Of a stretch of 64,000 nucleotides of DNA, positions 5,628 to 58,251 are shown piece by piece. A program made the translations under genes and the position numbers. The first letter of the stretch is position 1. Every line of letters begins with the position of its first letter. The notes under the pieces were generated by a model. It was not told the origin of the DNA and ran no database searches. It saw nothing but the letters and a program-made list of their open reading frames with translations. The stretch is from Minisyncoccia bacterium (GTDB lineage Bacteria; Patescibacteriota; Minisyncoccia; Phycocordibacterales; DATDWN01): contig JBAQUS010000011.1 of assembly GCA_049297675.1 (NCBI GenBank), positions 101,184-165,183 on the forward strand, given 5' to 3'.

Positions 5628-5864
5628 GTGAAAATATCAGACCCTACCTGCACTCTGCGCTGGAATAGAAATGAGAACGGAAGAGTCACAACTGGTGACA
5701 GGGAATTCTTCACCGATTTCCCTCAAGTACTGCAGTACGTGATCTCTCACACAACTGAACTGCGTCACTTGGGTGGCGAATGGGAGTTTACTCTTCAAGA
5801 CACAGGTGGAAGAGTTATCCCACTCGACCTTCCCACAGAGGTTAGACCTGAGGTGTGGCGATAG
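5628..5864 (+). CDS. hypothetical protein in a locally GC-rich patch
   Basis: ORF track only; GC content is clearly higher than the surroundings; no family recognised. Confidence 0.2.
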   Translation: MKISDPTCTLRWNRNENGRVTTGDREFFTDFPQVLQYVISHTTELRHLGGEWEFTLQDTGGRVIPLDLPTEVRPEVWR

Positions 5865-19157: not shown

Positions 19158-19330
19158 CAATTATCTTAGGTGACAGAACTTCCAAATTTGGTGAACTTCT
19201 CGTTCCGAATTTGAAAATGCTCGTCACCTTAGCACTAACTAAGGCTTCTCGCATTTTCAAATTCTCACGTCGAATTTCACTCAAATTTGAAAGTTCGTGG
19301 TGACTCTAGAATATAGTTTTCAAAATAAAA

Positions 19331-24096: not shown

Positions 24097-24294
24097 TTGG
24101 AGGATGTTATGTCATTTTTCACAGAGGGTATGGTACGTCGGGAGCATGAACGGAGAGACGGGACGCTCACTCAGGTTCTGAGGATCATTGATTCAGAGAT
24201 TTCCAAATGCAATCCTGGGTCTGACCATGGAGCGCAACGTGTCTATGCTCTTCAAGAGCTTCGCAAAAGGATTGTTCGCGAGGTTGCGGAGTGA
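24097..24294 (+). CDS. hypothetical small protein in a GC-rich patch
   Basis: ORF track only; GC-rich relative to the flanks. Confidence 0.2.
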   Translation: MEDVMSFFTEGMVRREHERRDGTLTQVLRIIDSEISKCNPGSDHGAQRVYALQELRKRIVREVAE

Positions 24295-24981: not shown

Positions 24982-25833
24982 ATGATATGCTTACGAGCAG
25001 AAATGCAGGAATCTCCTGCAACTGATCCAGCAGATCTCTGGAAAGTACGTTCACAGGGAGAAACTGTCATGACGACTCAAGTTGTCGCAGACGGCATTGC
25101 CAAGAGAAAACCGACGGTAGATGAGATGGAAACACTGCTCTTCAATCGCATTCCGGATCTGATTCGCCGCTACAAAGAGGGCGGTCTTGATCCAGCCGGA
25201 GTGAACACGACCCTGCAGATGGTGGCGGAAGGTTCAATCATCACTGAATCGAAAACAGTGGTGGTCGCTCCACCGAAGCCAAAGCAGGACAAGTTCGAAC
25301 TTCTCACGACGTTCGAAGTCACGGTCCCGGAAGGTTACAACCACGCAACTCACCTCGACACGTTCCGTGCACAGCATCAGAGTAAAGAGAACAAGGAGTT
25401 CTACTTCTACAACGATGCCATCACGGACGCGAACTACGCGGCGAAAGCGACGACCAAGTTGACCGCCGGCCGGAGGTTCTTGGTCAAGGCCTTCGGTATC
25501 AAGAAGACGGTGAGTTCACTCGACTGTCTCGCGAAGGTCAAGGCCGAAAACGCTGTTTTGACCGGGGCGCAGGGTGCATCCCTCGTTTACGAGGAGAGGA
25601 AGAACGAATTGCCGAAAGGCAAGTATTACGTCTCTTTCGATGAAAAGGATGCCCTCTGGCGGGATCCGTACGGCTACCACAGGGTGCCGCTCGTGTGCGC
25701 GTACTCCGATGACGACTTTCGCTTCGATCTCGGCCTCTTCGAGTTTGACTGGGTTTCCGTCTACGTCCTCCTCTGCTTCTGCGACTTGCCCAGTGACTCG
25801 TCTTCGGGCGAGGCACAGATCTTGGACGCTTAG
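24982..25833 (+). CDS. DGR target protein (GC-rich gene; the C-terminal ~45 aa are encoded by the variable repeat)
   Basis: its 3' end (about 25654-25786) matches the template repeat at 26200-26332 except at template adenines; the whole gene is about 55% GC. Confidence 0.6.
   Translation: MICLRAEMQESPATDPADLWKVRSQGETVMTTQVVADGIAKRKPTVDEMETLLFNRIPDLIRRYKEGGLDPAGVNTTLQMVAEGSIITESKTVVVAPPKPKQDKFELLTTFEVTVPEGYNHATHLDTFRAQHQSKENKEFYFYNDAITDANYAAKATTKLTAGRRFLVKAFGIKKTVSSLDCLAKVKAENAVLTGAQGASLVYEERKNELPKGKYYVSFDEKDALWRDPYGYHRVPLVCAYSDDDFRFDLGLFEFDWVSVYVLLCFCDLPSDSSSGEAQILDA
25654..25786 (+). repeat. DGR variable repeat (VR)
   Basis: 133-nt match to the TR; about 18 mismatches, all but one at TR adenines. 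Confidence 0.7.
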
Positions 25834-26199
25834 AACCTTAAACAAGTTCTTTGCTTTCTTTGATCCTTCCGTTTTTTCCAGGCCCCTGCTTTACCGCGGG
25901 GGTCCTTCTTTATATACTTTTCTTTTATTAATGTTTTCTATACAATAATCTTGGATATTCGATCGGGTGAGCGATCACGGTTTCTCACTATCGCTATCTT
26001 GTAAAAGGGATCAATGAGGATTCACCGAGCAATATTTTTTCTTAGCTTTGTGAATGAGAATTGCCTTTTATAAAAAAAACAAAATAAGTCGGTGTGATAG
26101 GTTATCGAGCGTATCAGTTATGACACATAAGGCTCGGAATGAAGTACAGAGGGTGACTGGTGTTGCTCTCGGTGATAATAGACGACCTATCATACATTG

Positions 26200-26332
26200 C
26201 TCTGGCAGGATCCGAACGGCAACCACAGGGTGCCGCTCGTGAACGCGAACTCCGATGACGACTTCAACTTCGATCTCGACAACTTCGAGAATGACTGGAA
26301 TTCCGACTACGTCCTCCTCTGCTTCTGCAACT
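26200..26332 (+). repeat. DGR template repeat (TR)
   Basis: non-coding copy of the VR carrying AAC codons (ALWQDPNGNHRVPLVNANSDDDFNFDLDNFENDWNSDY) where the VR encodes Y/C/R/L/F/V. Confidence 0.7.
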
Positions 26333-26373
26333 CATTTGTTTCTCCTCCATCTTTTAGGTGGGGGAGTTTCTTT

Positions 26374-26733
26374 TTACAATCTCTCCTGAATATCTTTCTT
26401 CCATCCTCCAAGCATTCGTCCGACTTCATCGAGATTGAGAATAAGAACTCCGTATTGTTTGTTATCTATGATTTTGTGTTCCCACGCTATTTGAAGGAAA
26501 AATTTAAGTAAATCATCTTTACCAATTGCTTGTGATACTAAAGAAAGCTTCTCAAATTTATCATATGCAAAACAGGCTCGAAATATTAATTCAAGTAGAG
26601 AAAGAAACAAATCGTCAATTTGTGTCCCGATAGTATTTCGATCAACACGATTAACTTTCTCTAAATAATCATGCCAAACTCTATATCCTTCTTTTGCACG
26701 GACTAAAACGAGGGGCGACGTTATCGGGGGGGT
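26374..26733 (-). CDS. avd: Avd-like accessory variability determinant (four-helix bundle, 23S-IVS protein family); the ORF-track start at 26610 is TTG and homology continues upstream to a stop at about 26734 with no canonical start codon
   Basis: LFLSLLELIFRACFA ... LLKFFLQIAWEHKIIDNKQYGVLILNLDEVGRMLGGWKK fits the Avd/IVS pattern (...VS ... LRFWLR ... IAEVGRILGxW). Confidence 0.5.
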   Translation of the reverse strand, partial: TPPITSPLVLVRAKEGYRVWHDYLEKVNRVDRNTIGTQIDDLFLSLLELIFRACFAYDKFEKLSLVSQAIGKDDLLKFFLQIAWEHKIIDNKQYGVLILNLDEVGRMLGGWKKDIQERL

Positions 26734-26776
26734 TCATCATAGTTTTATTATCTGTGTTGTAATTTTTTATGCTATA

Positions 26777-27769
26777 TTGAATTTCGTGTTCGCTCACAAA
26801 TATACAGACATAATAACCATAGAAAATATTTTGGCAACATGGGGTCATTTTGTTTGTGGTAAGCGCAAGAAAAGAGACGTCAGAACTTTTCAATTACTGC
26901 TTGCTGATAATCTCATTACGCTATACAAAGAACTTACTGAAAAAACATATGAACATGGTAATTATTCAGCTTTTAATATATCAGATCCTAAACCGAGAAA
27001 TATACATAAAGCATTGGTAAGAGATAGAGTCATTCATCATCTAATATATAAGGAGTTGTATTGGTATTTCCATGAAAGACTGATATTTGATTCGTATTCG
27101 TGCAGAAAATATAAGGGGACTCACAAAGCTCTTGATAGGTTTGAACTTTTTGCTGGAAAAGTCTCAAAAAATCATACGAGAACGTGTTATGTATTAAAAT
27201 GCGATATTAAAAAATTCTTTGCTTCAATTGATCAGAAGTCTCTGATGCAGGTTCTTGATCGGCATATTGAAGACGAAGATATTAAATGGTTGATTAATCA
27301 AGTGTTAAAAAGTTTTCATACAACTGATGTGGGTGTAGGTTTGCCACTAGGTAATCTTAGCTCTCAATTACTGGTAAATATCTATATGCATGAGTTCGAT
27401 ATGTATGTGAAACAGGAACTGAGAGTTAAATATTATATCCGTTACGCTGACGATTTTGTTTTTCTATCAGATGATAAAAAATATCTTGAAGATCTTTTAC
27501 CAAAAATAAGGTTGTTTTTACAAGATAAGCTTCATTTATCTCTCCACCCTAACAAAGTGTTTATACAAACGTCCAGTTTAGGAGTGGATTTTCTAGGCTG
27601 GATTCACTTTCCGCACCATCGCATTATTAGAACTACAACAAAACGTAAGATTATTAAAAACACAAAATGGTATCCACGTCATGAAACAGTCAATTCATAT
27701 CGAGGTCTACTGGGACACGGAAATACCCATGAATTACAAGAGAAAATTGGAATTATTAAACATGCGTAA
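26777..27769 (+). CDS. DGR-type reverse transcriptase
   Basis: RT motifs including GLPLGNLSSQLLVNIYM (the SQ signature of DGR RTs, cf. IGNLTSQ) and RYADDFVFL (YxDD box). Confidence 0.8.
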   Translation: MNFVFAHKYTDIITIENILATWGHFVCGKRKKRDVRTFQLLLADNLITLYKELTEKTYEHGNYSAFNISDPKPRNIHKALVRDRVIHHLIYKELYWYFHERLIFDSYSCRKYKGTHKALDRFELFAGKVSKNHTRTCYVLKCDIKKFFASIDQKSLMQVLDRHIEDEDIKWLINQVLKSFHTTDVGVGLPLGNLSSQLLVNIYMHEFDMYVKQELRVKYYIRYADDFVFLSDDKKYLEDLLPKIRLFLQDKLHLSLHPNKVFIQTSSLGVDFLGWIHFPHHRIIRTTTKRKIIKNTKWYPRHETVNSYRGLLGHGNTHELQEKIGIIKHA

Positions 27770-32350: not shown

Positions 32351-32785
32351 ATGTCAAAAGTGGTAGGAGGGTCCATGACCAATAAGAACCAGCGATACAA
32401 CCAACTCAAAAGTATTCTGGAGTCGAGGAGGGAGGAACTCCGAGAAGAGCTCAGGGGTGACATCGGTACCATCCAGTCGTCAGGGAATCAGACCGGCGGG
32501 GATCCTGTCGATCGCGGTGTAGCCGCGAACCAGGATGATCTAGAATTCGCTTTGATCCAGATGAAGTCTGAAACACTCAGTCGCATTGTGGGTGCACTCG
32601 TCCGTCTCGAACATGGCAAGTACGGCATCTGTTTAGATTGTGACGAAGAAATCGCCGAGAAGCGCTTGCGTGCGTTGCCGTTCGCAGATCGATGTACTGA
32701 CTGCGAGGGTGTCAAGGAGAATGAGGAGACCTTGAAACGTCGTCCATTTCAGGGTCAGCATGTCGGCCCACTTTTCGACCTCTAG
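32351..32785 (+). CDS. DksA/TraR-family C4 zinc-finger protein, GC-rich insertion between rplE and rpsZ
   Basis: C-terminal CLDCDEEIAEKRLRALPFADRCTDCEG is a C4 finger preceded by a coiled-coil region; GC content is far above the flanking ribosomal genes. Confidence 0.55.
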   Translation: MSKVVGGSMTNKNQRYNQLKSILESRREELREELRGDIGTIQSSGNQTGGDPVDRGVAANQDDLEFALIQMKSETLSRIVGALVRLEHGKYGICLDCDEEIAEKRLRALPFADRCTDCEGVKENEETLKRRPFQGQHVGPLFDL

Positions 32786-33020
32786 TTCCTTCTTCGTAGC
32801 CTGGCTCTTTCGGGAGCCAGGCATCGTCGTATACACGCGTTGACTTTGCTTGGACATTTTGATACTCTTAAGCCCAAGCGAATCTTCGCTTTTTTAATTA
32901 GTATTTTTAGAACTTTCACAATTTGGATGAAATCCGAGGCAGACGAGAAAAATGCGAGGAGCCTTATCGAGTATAAGGTGACGAGCATTTTTTGAAGTCT
33001 AACGAAGGAGTTCGCCAAAT

Positions 33021-33221
33021 TTGAAAGTTATAACCATGGCAAAGACATCAGTACTGGCACGAGCCGCAAAAAAGCCAAAGTTTTCTACACGGGCAACAAA
33101 CCGATGTTTTAAGTGTGGACGTGGAAGAGCATTTATGAGAGACTTTGGTCTCTGCAGGATATGCTTCCGCGAGCTTGCCAATGAAGGGAAGATACCAGGT
33201 GTGAAAAAGTCGTCTTGGTAA
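33021..33221 (+). CDS. rpsZ: 30S ribosomal protein S14, type Z (zinc-ribbon form)
   Basis: 61-aa protein with [23 protein letters not shown]. Confidence 0.85.
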
Positions 33222-43320: not shown

Positions 43321-43425
43321 CAAACCAAAACCTTTTTAGAGACTCTCGGAGGCTGACGAGCCGAGAGTGAGCAAATTTCTAGCCCAGAAATTATGTGTGC
43401 TCTAAAAAGGTTTTGGTTAGTAAGA
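43321..43425 (+). repeat. copy 1 of an ~85-bp direct repeat containing a nested inverted repeat
   Basis: ttttagagactctcggaggctgacgagccgagagtgagcaaatttctagcccagaaattatgtgtgctctaaaaag. Confidence 0.55.
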
Positions 43426-43717
43426 GATTTTTTACAACCTATCTCAGATTTTTTTCAAGTTGTGTCAGGTCTAGTGAAAGGTATAATTATATGGGGTTAC
43501 ATTAGATATTTTCTACCTAAAATTTTTTTAGGGAGCCCGAATCTTTGTGTCGCGATGAGCGTTTACTCGTTCTGACTTACACATATGAGGGCACCCACCT
43601 GCGGTAAAACGTAGGGGAATATCTATGTGACCCCACTAAAGGCCCCGCCCCTGAAGTATTGGCGGAGTTTTTAGTAAGAGAAGTTTGTTGTACAATGTAT
43701 TAACCGTGAATTAAAAA

Positions 43718-43842
43718 ACTCGTCGAAAACATAATTTTTTAGAGACTCTCGGAGGCTGACGAGCCGAGAGTGAGCAAATTTCTAGCTCAGAAATTATGTG
43801 TGCTCTAAAAAGTTATGTTGAGTAAGAGTTTTGTAATCAACA
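43718..43842 (+). repeat. copy 2 of the same direct repeat, flanked by the conserved gene-proximal module ...gttgagtaagagttttgtaatcaacaATG
   Basis: near-identical to copy 1 (one C/T difference in the core); the same upstream module is found before comEC at 1836-1975. Confidence 0.55.
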
Positions 43843-49776: not shown

Positions 49777-49918
49777 ACCAAAAGTATATCAAGACAAATT
49801 GCTAATTGGTAGTAACACAGAGGCAACGATATACGGAGGCGTTGCCTCCGTATACGTTGCCTCCGTATATAGGTTTCTCCTCGTAATCTAAAATCATAGT
49901 AATTTTTTAGGGGTAGTT

Positions 49919-49985
49919 GTTTGAATAAAAAGAAAGACCCCGTGCAGAGGTCGTGCGTTTGCACGGGGTCTCTCACGGGGTCGGA
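49919..49985 (-). terminator. two consecutive GC-rich hairpins followed (on the minus strand) by a U-run, immediately after the stop of the GC-rich gene
   Basis: agaccccgtgca-gaggtcgtgcgtt-tgcacggggtct and gactagcaagga-cgg-tccttgctagtc, preceded on the plus strand by aaaaagaaag. Confidence 0.5.
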
Positions 49986-50696
49986 CTAGCAAGGACGGTC
50001 CTTGCTAGTCAGAGCGTCGCGATCTTTCTCGATTTCCTTCTCGAAGTCACTCTTTGGACCGAGTGGATCCTGTGGCTGAAACATGTCTCCGAGGTACTGG
50101 CCGTAAGTGATCCAGTTGTCCTCGCAGTACGCCTCGACCATGGTTTCCTGAACGACCTCGGGATCGGGGAGATAGTATCTTCCTCTCCATTCCTCCTGGC
50201 CGATGAGAGTCACGAGTTTGACGAACTTCTGCATCGCGGTGTGAGTGAAACCCTCACCGTTACGCAGGTTGAGTCTCAGGTTTGCCGTCAAGGCAGACCC
50301 GTTGGCCCAGACTGGACTGACACCACCATCGTCGTCGGTGTAATCCCAATCAGCACCAAGCTCGTTTCCGATTACTTCCGAGAGTGCTCGGCGGAAGTGC
50401 TGGCGGATCACCTGCTGGTGAACCTCGCGAGCAGTCTTCTCGGCTTCGAACTCAACCCTGAGAGTGGCCTTACCACGAAACATCGTGGCGGTCACTTGAA
50501 CCAGAACAGCTTCACACACCTTAGTAGGCATGTGCTTCTGATGAGCCGGCGCCATCGGGTTAACGAAACGCCAGGTCATCGTCGTGCGCTGGAGCTTCTT
50601 CATGGCTGTCTCCTTGCTGTCATAAACTCTGGGTCTACCAGAGGCCCAGCATAATACCGGGACAAATAACAGCAATCTAAGCACAATTATAAACAA
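49986..50696 (-). CDS. hypothetical protein encoded by a strongly GC-rich gene (foreign-looking); the plus-strand ORF 49953..50654 is its antisense shadow
   Basis: ORF track; the minus-strand protein has an ordinary composition while the plus-strand ORF is L/R/S-rich junk. Confidence 0.35.
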   Translation of the reverse strand: MFIIVLRLLLFVPVLCWASGRPRVYDSKETAMKKLQRTTMTWRFVNPMAPAHQKHMPTKVCEAVLVQVTATMFRGKATLRVEFEAEKTAREVHQQVIRQHFRRALSEVIGNELGADWDYTDDDGGVSPVWANGSALTANLRLNLRNGEGFTHTAMQKFVKLVTLIGQEEWRGRYYLPDPEVVQETMVEAYCEDNWITYGQYLGDMFQPQDPLGPKSDFEKEIEKDRDALTSKDRPC

Positions 50697-51220
50697 TTTA
50701 TAACTCTATGTCAAGGGGTAGTTTGGGCGCCGAAAGGGTGGCTAAGATGTTGAGACTTTTATGAAGAAAGGGCAGTTGGTTAGGAATGATTTTAGTTTCG
50801 TTAATACAAGAATCACTTCATTGCTCAATAGTTTTTTATTAGACGAGGTGTCTTTTACTGAAAGCGTGTCCTGAGCCATGTTTTAAGTATTTTTCAAATT
50901 TTAGTGCCTTATTTTTATTTGGAAATGCGCAAAACCAGATTAATGAGAATGGAAGTTTAGTTTTTGAGTATCTAGACTCCCCGTTATTGTGTTCTTTTAG
51001 TCTATTCTTGATGTTTTCTGTGCTTCCGAAATATAGACTACCATCCTTCTGACTTTTTTAGAATGTAAACATAGTGCATATAAAGAATATATATCCTGCG
51101 TCGCTTGATTACAAGCTATGCAGGATCCACTGCTTCGCTAACAAAAAACCTCACAGGTTGTGTGAAGTTTCTTGTGCTAAAGGTATTTAGTGCCTGCACT
51201 GCGTAGCTTTAGCGAAGCAG

Positions 51221-51617
51221 TGGAGATGCCGATAGTTGAAATCGGGTCCATAAAGTGAATCGAGACAGATCTACAATACTTAGTTTACTTAAAGTTTTAA
51301 TCCGTGTTGCTTAGAGTAAACCAAACACAACACGGACGATCTTCTATTTTCTGGTTTCACTCGAAGAAAGTGAAACTATAACCTTAGTTTATATCAATCA
51401 TCTCCTCCTTAAAGGTTCAAGAGGAGAGACCGTCGTTTAGGTGTTGAGTTTAAGCAACTGCGTAAGCGAAAGCAAAATCGTTTGCTCCAAAATATGGAGA
51501 AGCGGATGCTTTTTTAGATAAGTTTTTTACACTTAATCTTTCCAGACTTTTTAAGAGTTTCTGGAGCTCTGTATTGCCTGAATCAATATCGTCTTTATGT
51601 CAAAACCTGTCATCCCC
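51221..51617 (-). ncRNA. ssrA: tmRNA (ssrA), about 397 nt, predicted tag peptide (A)ANDFAFAYAVA
   Basis: minus-strand 5' end GGGGATGACAGGTTTTGACA resembles GGGGCTGATTCTGGATTCGAC; the 3' end CCGAT-TTCAACT-ATCGG-CATCTCC-A forms a T-arm and a 7-bp acceptor stem with the 5' end, including a G3:U70 wobble pair; internal ORF GCA AAC GAT TTT GCT TTC GCT TAC GCA GTT GCT TAA at about 51450-51485; smpB lies immediately upstream. Confidence 0.6.
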
Positions 51618-51729: not shown

Positions 51730-52173
51730 CTATTTACCTTTCAAGTCTCTCTCGATATCACGTTCTGTGTCTCTCTTCTTGATCGACTCTCTTTTGTCGA
51801 ATTTTTTCTTGCCCCTAGCGACTGCGATATCGAGCTTTATTAGACCCCCCTTATTATACACCGAAATTGGGACAATTGTCAATCCTTTAGCGTTTTCAGT
51901 GCCAGATAGAGCCATAATCTCCTTTTTGCTAAGCAAAAGTCGTCGGTTTCTGTACGGATCATAGTCTTTTGGAGTGTTTCCAGCTTGATATGGCGGGATG
52001 AACATGCCAATTAAATAGGCTTCCGCACCACGAATGGTTACATAAGTACCCTCTAAAGACCCCTGACTTTTCCTTAATGACTTTACCTCAAACCCAAAAA
52101 GCTCTATACCGGCAGTATATTTTTCCAAAATCTCGTAATCGAACCCTGCTTTTCTGTTTGTGATAAGAGACAT
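51730..52173 (-). CDS. smpB: SsrA-binding protein SmpB
   Basis: ITNRKAGFDYEILEKYTAGIELFGFEVKSLR ... GLTIVPISVYNKGGLIKLDIAVARGKK. Confidence 0.9.
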   Translation of the reverse strand: MSLITNRKAGFDYEILEKYTAGIELFGFEVKSLRKSQGSLEGTYVTIRGAEAYLIGMFIPPYQAGNTPKDYDPYRNRRLLLSKKEIMALSGTENAKGLTIVPISVYNKGGLIKLDIAVARGKKKFDKRESIKKRDTERDIERDLKGK

Positions 52174-52208: not shown

Positions 52209-52502
52209 TTGTTTATGTATAGTAAAAGCAGAGGAGGTGACCCTATGGCAAGACCATACGGTGTAAACACCGATTTGCTGTGTCCAGATTGTGCAAGTTC
52301 CGAGAAGGATTTTCCGAAATATCCTCGTGACCAGGTGGGCCAGGTCAGGTGTTCGGAGTGCCAGAGGTTTCTTGTCCATCTGGGGACTCTTAGTGTCGGA
52401 GAGTTGGATGAACTCTCTGCCAGATGGCCGGAGCTGGGCGATGTCAAGTTCAGCACCATCTGTGCAGACTACGATAGGAGGGGAATAAGCTTGCCACAAT
52501 GA
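52209..52502 (+). CDS. small GC-rich CxxC...CxxC zinc-ribbon protein (likely start at MARPYGV near 52245)
   Basis: LCPDCASSEK ... VRCSECQRF; GC content far above the neighbourhood. Confidence 0.3.
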   Translation: MFMYSKSRGGDPMARPYGVNTDLLCPDCASSEKDFPKYPRDQVGQVRCSECQRFLVHLGTLSVGELDELSARWPELGDVKFSTICADYDRRGISLPQ

Positions 52503-57962: not shown

Positions 57963-58251
57963 ACCCCCGAACTAATTAGGACTTTGAATTATGTTCTATG
58001 TGTATATATTAAAAAGTGAAAAGGACAACAATCTTTACACTGGGTATACAAATGATCTTAAAAGGAGACTCATAGAACATAATTCAGGTAAAAGTAAGTC
58101 AACTAAATCGAGAAAACCATTTGAGTTGATATATTACGAAGCAAGGATGACGCTACGCATAGGGAACAAATGTTAAAGGAATACGGTAGATCTCTAGGTG
58201 GCTTAAAAAGACGAATAAGCATGAGTCTTAAGTCCTAATTAGTTCGGGGGT
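57963..58251. mobile_element. 289-bp cassette bounded by perfect 22-bp terminal inverted repeats (ACCCCCGAACTAATTAGGACTT) that encloses only a GIY-YIG nuclease ORF
   Basis: left arm about 57963-57984, right arm about 58230-58251 (exact reverse complement). Confidence 0.5.
57991..58176 (+). CDS. GIY-YIG nuclease (UPF0213-like), interrupted by an apparent +1 frameshift near 58140-58150; the downstream frame continues ...DDATHREQMLKEYGRSLGGLKRRISMSLKS to 58238
   Basis: YVYILKSEKDNNLYTGYTNDLKRRLIEHNSGKS is the GIY-YIG motif; the C-terminal homology resumes in the +2 frame. Confidence 0.55.
   Translation: MFYVYILKSEKDNNLYTGYTNDLKRRLIEHNSGKSKSTKSRKPFELIYYEARMTLRIGNKC

Follow-up and report, generated by a model that had tools for sequence, protein, structure and literature searches.

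What kind of gene stands as a narrow peak of guanine and cytosine (GC) in an otherwise AT-rich bacterial genome, and by what route would it have come there? The question is raised by a stretch of 64,000 nucleotides from a Minisyncoccia bacterium (contig JBAQUS010000011.1; hereafter the window), in which the interval 49826-50700 is the GC maximum (52.5%) and holds, on the minus strand, a gene for an orphan protein of 205 aa. Bacteria of the Candidate Phyla Radiation (CPR), Minisyncoccia among them, have tiny genomes, and to our knowledge their accessory genes and gene regulation are largely unexplored. We consider it probable that the gene belongs to a self-contained, moron-like CPR expression cassette, which would have been exchanged among CPR lineages from GC-richer CPR donors and which would carry a regulatory leader RNA. 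Such a unit, of about 0.85 kb, would consist of a consensus sigma-70 promoter, a structured 5' leader, a ribosome-binding site, the coding sequence and an intrinsic terminator (Table 1).

The strong GC excess reported for the gene by the initial annotation is confirmed by a coding sequence at 55.5% GC against 38.2% for the window overall. Its GC content at third codon positions (GC3) is 0.67 (0.61 and 0.39 at the first and second positions), compared with a median of 0.32 and a standard deviation of 0.095 for the open reading frames (ORFs) of the window (n = 87). The GC transitions at the patch are sharp, and the dinucleotide signature of the gene is off the background (p ~0.013). The 236-aa minus-strand ORF that had been described is present (49986..50696), but its product is the 205-aa protein and its first 31 codons are artefactual: the TTG from which they would be read lies inside the promoter spacer, between the -35 and -10 boxes, and the peptide quoted with that ORF (MKKLQ...) itself begins at the ATG at 50603. 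An exactly matching 205-aa sequence is on record as MFZ2521890.1, "hypothetical protein [Minisyncoccia bacterium]". An antisense shadow ORF also exists as had been claimed (49953..50654, plus strand, 233 aa) and is not the coding frame; identity to homologues amounts to 65% for the sense reading and 44% for the antisense reading. The closest copy, at locus L009 (homologous loci are numbered L001, L002 and so forth), is 96% identical at the amino acid level and 87% at the nucleotide level, and the 51 nucleotide differences fall 9, 5 and 37 times at codon positions 1, 2 and 3. Because of this third-position excess and of the higher amino acid than nucleotide identity, the patch is taken to be a coding gene. 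The predicted structure of the protein is confident (predicted local distance difference test score, pLDDT, of 89) and of alpha+beta type, and no match was obtained in Pfam, NCBIfam, PHROG, PADLOC or PDB.

By motif match, the gene has its own predicted promoter directly upstream, from which transcription would start 2-6 nt ahead of the leader RNA, near 50678-50682. Near-consensus promoters stand at the equivalent position in L009, L003, L001 and L006. Downstream, the twin perfect hairpins and the T-run seen at first inspection were recovered, as a 13-bp palindrome over the stop codon and a 12-bp stem before the T-run, with arm sequences that are unique within the window. The palindrome encodes a window-specific C-terminal tail (...LTSKDRPC, then the stop), and homology to the L001 copy stops at 50012, where the palindrome starts. 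The second hairpin (12-nt arms at 49935-49946 and 49960-49971, then TTTCTTTTT) folds with -30.6 kcal/mol (z-score -5.9) and, as a GC-rich stem followed by a T-run, is predicted to be the gene's own factor-independent terminator, with the transcript ending near 49926-49934. A third and longer hairpin (-41.6 kcal/mol, z-score -7.7) precedes the pilB/gspE-type ATPase gene that lies downstream of the cassette. The hairpins 3' of the gene are not conserved in sequence between copies; L001 and L009 have twin hairpins after the family gene in common, but the gene that comes next is not shared. At the upstream edge of the conserved unit, comparison by eye shows a degenerate version of the perfect 12-bp hairpin that precedes the L009 promoter. 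We also considered as a target-site duplication the 10-nt direct repeat AACTACCCCT (minus strand; 50714-50723 and 49909-49918), which spans from just before the -35 box to past the terminator, and rejected it, since a 1.6-kb stretch should contain about one such pair by chance and the homology to L009 extends beyond it.

The second component that travels with the gene is the leader. Conservation of the ~75 nt ahead of the start codon persists even among loci whose proteins are just 23-40% identical, and in all loci with DNA (12/12) the leader stands directly 5' of the ribosome-binding site. Isolated leaders fold into one and the same three-way junction (10/10 of those then in hand), which is also the minimum-energy fold in 11 of 12 when 45 nt of downstream sequence are added, and RNAalifold independently predicts an identical junction. 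Helix P1 pairs UUGCUGUUA with UGACAGCAA in the window (UGCUGUUA/UGACAGCA for the leader family), P2 is CCCGGUA-UUA-UGCUGGG and closes a conserved GGUAU.AUGCC top across the family, and P3, in the window CUCUGG-UAGAC-CCAGAG, is variable in sequence among members and often capped by GNRA-type loops. Compensatory changes occur in 12 of the 22 pairs of the 12-sequence alignment, across P1, P2 and P3, and 91.5% of its cells are paired, compared with 24-62% in slid controls. A covariance model (R1) was built from ten leader sequences, with two loci held out. Over all loci it gives one match each, always directly 5' of the family gene (42-88 bits; 55-88 bits for the ten model-building loci), and it detects the held-out loci with 58.7 and 42.1 bits; in one of these, L029, P1 is fully covaried (GUCGCUA/UAGCGAC). 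The opposite strand gives 12-20 bits where it scores at all, and because of these low scores and of the conserved G-U pairs the fold is assigned to the sense strand. R1 locates no second copy of the leader within the window. Rfam 15 gives no match at gathering thresholds, and the best hit of a permissive Rfam scan over the leader is nhaA-II, which at 19 bits (E 3.7) falls well short of its gathering score of 70.4. With no Rfam match, the leader appears to be a previously undescribed RNA, and literature searches returned no description of either the protein family or the RNA motif. An ATG within P1 was examined as a functional upstream ORF and discarded: its frame differs between loci, and L029 is without the ATG and nevertheless keeps the pairing.

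By its covarying structure and its fixed place 5' of one gene family, this element is, as judged from sequence, a structured leader RNA with a putative cis-regulatory role. Within the transcript it would stand at the extreme 5' end or near it, since the -10 box lies ~10 nt before P1 in the window, L009, L003 and L001; L015 and L029 have their promoter another 45-70 nt upstream. P1 reaches to the edge of the ribosome-binding site, which the junction leaves unsequestered, and folding of the leaders reveals no expression platform. We infer that the leader binds a factor acting in trans, be it a small ligand or a protein (for instance the gene's own product), and thereby would set translation initiation, protect the 5' end of the mRNA, or both; binding of the factor beside the ribosome-binding site, or protection of the 5' end, seems more likely than a simple masking switch. 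In a subset of loci (L002, 7866-7920; L016, 5868-5920; L030, ~190-245) an extra conserved segment is found upstream of the junction, holding a short hairpin and the perfect palindrome GGCAGCTGCC, a possible operator.

Table 1. Features of the cassette, of its surroundings and of the other GC-rich patches (positions refer to the window unless a locus is named).
Feature	Position	Strand	Remarks
Coding sequence of the target gene	49986..50603	minus	205-aa orphan alpha+beta protein (MKKLQRTTMTWRF...); ATG at 50603; 55.5% GC
Sigma-70-type promoter (predicted)	50686..50714	minus	TTGACA, 17-nt spacer, TATAAT; 12/12 consensus matches
Conserved three-way-junction leader RNA	50610..50676	minus	67 nt; ends in ribosome-binding site AAGGAG; R1 84.7 bits
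Upstream edge of conserved unit	50724..50752	minus	blastn homology to L009 reaches 50752
Perfect palindrome across stop codon	49984..50010	minus	13 bp, 1-nt spacer; arms 49984-49996 and 49998-50010
Intrinsic terminator (predicted)	49926..49971	minus	perfect 12-bp stem (AGACCCCGUGCA / UGCACGGGGUCU), small inner hairpin within, then UUUCUUUUU
Third hairpin	49817..49879	minus	~24 bp, no T-run; tandem 15-nt repeat (TATACGGAGGCAACG x2) and inverted copy
Frameshifted GIY-YIG nuclease gene	50839..51079	minus	three-frame translation; family assigned by motif reading
Transfer-messenger RNA (tmRNA) gene	51218..51617	minus	112 bits
smpB	51730..52173		context gene beside tmRNA
CxxC zinc-ribbon ORF	52209-52502		beside smpB
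Target of diversity-generating retroelement	24982-26340		variable repeat 25654-25786; template repeat 26200-26332
DksA/TraR-like zinc-finger gene	32351-32785		GC3 0.59
Small orphans	5628-5864, 24097-24294, 783-1028
ORF-less GC-rich patch (probable non-coding RNA)	43491-43680		folding z-score -6.5; weak 6S RNA match, 21 bits, E 0.036
GC-rich orphan companions of the family gene	L001 8736-10709; L002 5342-7722; L009 1632-1937; L016 5274-5771; L014 714-1043

The protein family is very rare. Eight homologues were found among 5.8 billion sequences, and a profile search gave 17 clusters among 1.84 billion representatives; a single GTDB species genome carries it, and scans of GTDB genomes and of JGI metagenomes returned one locus each, both duplicating loci already in hand. 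All labelled carriers belong to CPR lineages (Minisyncoccia, Candidatus Doudnabacteria, Candidatus Parcubacteria and Candidatus Saccharibacteria), and no homologue in a non-CPR context was seen among 15 billion proteins.

Despite this rarity, the family occupies at least six unrelated neighbourhoods. The gene lies between tpiA and pgk in L029, beside a rhodanese gene in L003 and L006 (with MacB/FtsX genes on the other side in L003, while the L006 contig ends just after the gene), and next to Fic and DEAD helicase genes in L012; in L016, a Doudnabacteria contig, an HTH_36 protein is encoded near it and a large serine recombinase ~3 kb away. In L001 and L009 it heads a run of GC-rich orphan genes. 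L002 has the L20-IF3 ... tmRNA-smpB neighbourhood of the window, with the gene inverted, and in both it adjoins the tmRNA gene, 0.5-2 kb from the tmRNA 3' end (~0.5 kb in the window). The window and L009 resemble each other only over 50752..50041, with flanks that are unrelated by blastn, a pattern that points to a recent transfer or relocation of the unit from promoter to coding sequence. L003 and L006, by comparison, are 75% identical in nucleotides over their whole shared locus, with the target at 70% and the flanking genes at 68-90% amino acid identity, a pattern that indicates a long vertical residence of the gene. The cassette would thus have passed horizontally among CPR lineages and, once inserted, would also have been inherited vertically. 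GC-rich orphan companions (GC 0.48-0.61, mostly <210 aa, ~100-230 nt apart) accompany the family gene in several genomes and have no Pfam or PADLOC match.

As to the donor, the family gene has 48-59% GC and a GC3 of 0.56-0.75 in hosts of 33-47% GC; L014, a 1-kb contig, was set apart from this comparison, its only other sequence being another GC-rich orphan. In L029, a Parcubacteria contig of 52% GC, the GC3 of the gene (0.67) matches that of its neighbours (0.55-0.65), and because the gene looks native there, GC-richer CPR bacteria are a plausible reservoir. The high GC content would then go back to an origin in CPR genomes of ~50-55% GC, followed by a slow and incomplete drift toward host composition. 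Polarised substitutions (GC-to-AT versus AT-to-GC) number 32/8 in L006, 16/12 in L003 and 7/2 in the window lineage. The earlier proposal of acquisition from a higher-GC donor is therefore retained as regards the transfer, for which the odd composition, the number of loci and the unrelated flanks of L009 speak, and finds no support as regards a host or phage donor, all labelled carriers being CPR.

Several observations weigh against an exchanged, leader-regulated cassette. GC3 stays high across the deep divergence of the family (23-96% identity), as continued selection for GC would predict, and the dinucleotide signatures put the gene no nearer to an L029-type genome than to its own host. Between the window and L002, the target has diverged about as far as the flanking housekeeping genes (46% versus 37-52%), which fits an old native gene, and no recombinase, attachment (att) repeat or target-site duplication marks an insertion in the window. 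On the RNA side, the leader sequences number only 12, the ribosome-binding site is unsequestered, with a predicted accessibility of 0.12-0.99, and the sequence discloses no switching mechanism.

The first group of these points belongs to the alternative that fares best, namely an ancient native CPR gene whose high GC is actively maintained, through selection on mRNA structure or stability or through GC-biased repair, and is no mark of transfer. Relatives with the same composition at the same locus, which the initial annotation had regarded as the sign of a native gene, do exist in L003 and L006, where divergence is like that of the flanks; the family as a whole is nonetheless spread over its six or more loci. 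The shared IF3 ... tmRNA neighbourhood of the window and L002, a GC3 that is uniformly 0.63-0.75 in members just 23-45% identical, and the balanced substitutions of L003 would also suit such a gene. Opposed to it are the very patchy distribution of the family, the unrelated loci, the L009 copy with its foreign flanks, the inverted orientation and different neighbours in L002 relative to the window, and the clear drift of L006 toward AT. Highly expressed native genes of the window are, moreover, not GC3-rich (0.35 for tuf, 0.25-0.42 for ribosomal protein genes). On balance we regard a maintained native gene as unlikely, and the exchange of the cassette among CPR lineages as the better account.

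A phage or plasmid donor, or acquisition from a GC-rich bacterium serving as host to the CPR cell, is less probable still, and we doubt it considerably. Such a source would agree with the autonomous promoter and terminator of the unit and its odd composition, as in a phage moron, with its position adjoining tmRNA, a classic integration site, and with the serine recombinase and HTH_36 protein near the gene in L016; there, however, the recombinase element is AT-rich and the gene is not. Searches by tblastn gave no match in 50,697 phage records (INPHARED) or 72,556 plasmids (PLSDB), a protein-pattern scan of IMG/VR gave no family match, and BFVD gave no fold match, so that the host or phage donor first suggested is not upheld; the absence of any non-CPR homologue tells against it as well. 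A pattern scan of IMG/VR for the RNA motif picked 12 loci, which match by construction of the pattern, since each scores just 15-18 bits with R1, the level of chance. In the window, no phage genes flank the target, no integrase is found between 47.9 and 51.2 kb, and the 24-nt tmRNA 3' end occurs once in 64 kb at <=3 mismatches, leaving no tmRNA att duplication.

That the leader acts as a DNA site for recombination, nicking or insertion, and not as RNA, is very improbable. It does accompany the gene at every locus, and the near invariance of the P1 sequence, which varies in one of 12 loci, would suit sequence-specific recognition by a protein. Against this, the leader follows the promoter and has the ribosome-binding site at its end, its conserved G-U pairs (U9-G, U24-G) would become C-A mismatches on the opposite strand, the reverse strand scores far below the sense strand, as given above, and homology between copies runs past the leader on either side. 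Finally, an assembly or binning chimera, or a GC-rich non-coding RNA in place of a protein gene, can practically be dismissed: the sharp GC transitions, the long antisense ORF and the fact that GC-rich islands of AT-rich genomes are often structured RNAs (the patch 43491-43680 resembles one) might suggest it, but the identical protein occurs in four separate NCBI assemblies, represented by MFZ2521890, MFZ2569461, MFZ2716297 and MFZ2728231, which make chimerism unlikely because in each the target and SmpB accession numbers are exactly two apart, independent assemblies (NCBI, ENA, JGI and Logan) again show the GC-rich family gene within AT-rich flanks, and both the codon-position pattern and the confident structure model are those of a protein gene.

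For CPR genomics, these data mean that a single gene standing out as a sharp GC spike can be a genuine unit, independent in its transcription and common to distant CPR lineages. The cassette offers a concrete marker with which to follow gene exchange inside the CPR and points to other CPR bacteria, and not to hosts or phages, as the source, while the leader, a compact and covariation-supported structure outside Rfam, is a testable candidate for a new class of regulatory RNA. A bolder possibility, to which we give limited credence, is that the junction represents a new, CPR-only class of ligand- or protein-responsive riboregulators travelling with an orphan effector as a plug-in module, and that GC-rich CPR orphans, including the neighbours in L001, L002, L009 and L016, could be the visible part of an unrecognised CPR gene-exchange pool.

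The other GC-rich patches listed by the initial annotation are likewise genuine outliers in GC or GC3. They do not form the single class of element that it had offered as one possibility, their kinds being different (a retroelement target with its template repeat, a probable non-coding RNA). Every islet gene comes with a promoter-like site of its own and is followed by a GC-rich hairpin. The target, the retroelement target and the DksA-like gene are each off the host dinucleotide signature (p ~0.003-0.03) and are mutually more alike than random background pairs, weakly so (p 0.03-0.14), which is suggestive of a common source and no proof of one. Comparison of the window's other GC-rich ORFs with the GC-rich genes that neighbour the family gene in L001, L002, L009 and L016 gave no significant homology. 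The diversity-generating retroelement spans 24982-27769, with a GC-rich target and template repeat (GC3 ~0.67) and an AT-rich reverse transcriptase gene (26777-27769, GC 0.33). The DksA/TraR-type gene is wedged between rplE and rpsN in the ribosomal-protein cluster, with its own promoter-like site and terminator. The ORF-less patch is bracketed by ~90-nt direct repeats of 93% identity (43326-43412 and 43731-43815), for which a three-way junction can be drawn by eye; we considered them as a hammerhead ribozyme and rejected this, as inspection by eye did not place the core motifs in the junction.

A long imperfect hairpin element of ~125 nt is present in two copies in the window, one between the DksA-like gene and the rpsN start (32907-33032, plus strand) and the other just after tuf (19177-19295, minus strand). 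It also follows the family gene in L003 (4934-5060) and L006 (7622-7748), the copies being 73-85% identical, with folding z-scores of -5 to -12. Rfam gives no match for the element, which may represent either a small mobile hairpin repeat or an RNA. Around the tmRNA gene, a perfect 16-nt inverted repeat (51126-51141 / 51209-51224) pairs the last bases of the gene with a segment 67 nt downstream and may form a stem for precursor processing or termination. Between the tmRNA 3' end and the cassette lies the frameshifted GIY-YIG gene, which reads MHYVYILKKSEGW up to a stop in one frame and ...GSLYFGSTENIKNRLKEHNNGESRY...SGHAFSKRHLV up to a stop in another, with the frameshift near a run of A's. 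A second small GIY-YIG-type nuclease gene (57991-58176, plus strand) looks degraded as well, with stop codons after ~60 codons.

Compared with known systems, the unit shares features with several. Like the islands at the 3' end of tmRNA (ssrA), the gene of the window and that of L002 lie near tmRNA among poorly conserved or degraded genes (the GIY-YIG pseudogene in the window, a PemK toxin in L002); unlike them, it has no integrase and no repeat of the tmRNA 3' end, and most family members are away from tmRNA. Integron cassettes are also single-ORF mobile units, often orphan, of odd composition and bounded by hairpins, but the unit described here has its own promoter, and its 3' hairpins differ between copies and behave as terminators; neither an attC-type site nor an integron integrase was seen nearby, no formal attC model having been run. 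The leader resembles orphan riboswitch candidates, the purine riboswitch and ribosomal-protein leaders in being a compact RNA of 60-70 nt in the 5' untranslated region, built as a three-way junction with covarying helices, and its conserved junction and loop nucleotides, the P1 that abuts the ribosome-binding site and the strict tie to one gene family are those of riboswitches and autoregulatory leaders. It differs from purine riboswitches in a J2/3 of just 2-3 nt, compared with 8 nt, and from known riboswitches and leaders in general in having no Rfam match and no obvious expression platform or anti-ribosome-binding-site sequence. The morons described by Hendrix and colleagues are autonomous extra genes of lambdoid and other prophages, with their own promoter, a factor-independent terminator and a deviating composition. 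The unit of the window is likewise a single gene with a near-consensus sigma-70 promoter, an intrinsic terminator and a composition unlike that of the surrounding genome, and members of its family are inserted between otherwise conserved neighbours (tpiA and pgk in L029, rhodanese and MacB in L003), which vary by genome. Unlike phage morons, it is not in a prophage, has no phage genes nearby and no match in phage collections, and has been found in CPR chromosomes only; and it adds to the moron plan a leader RNA of conserved structure, for which the definition of a moron makes no provision.

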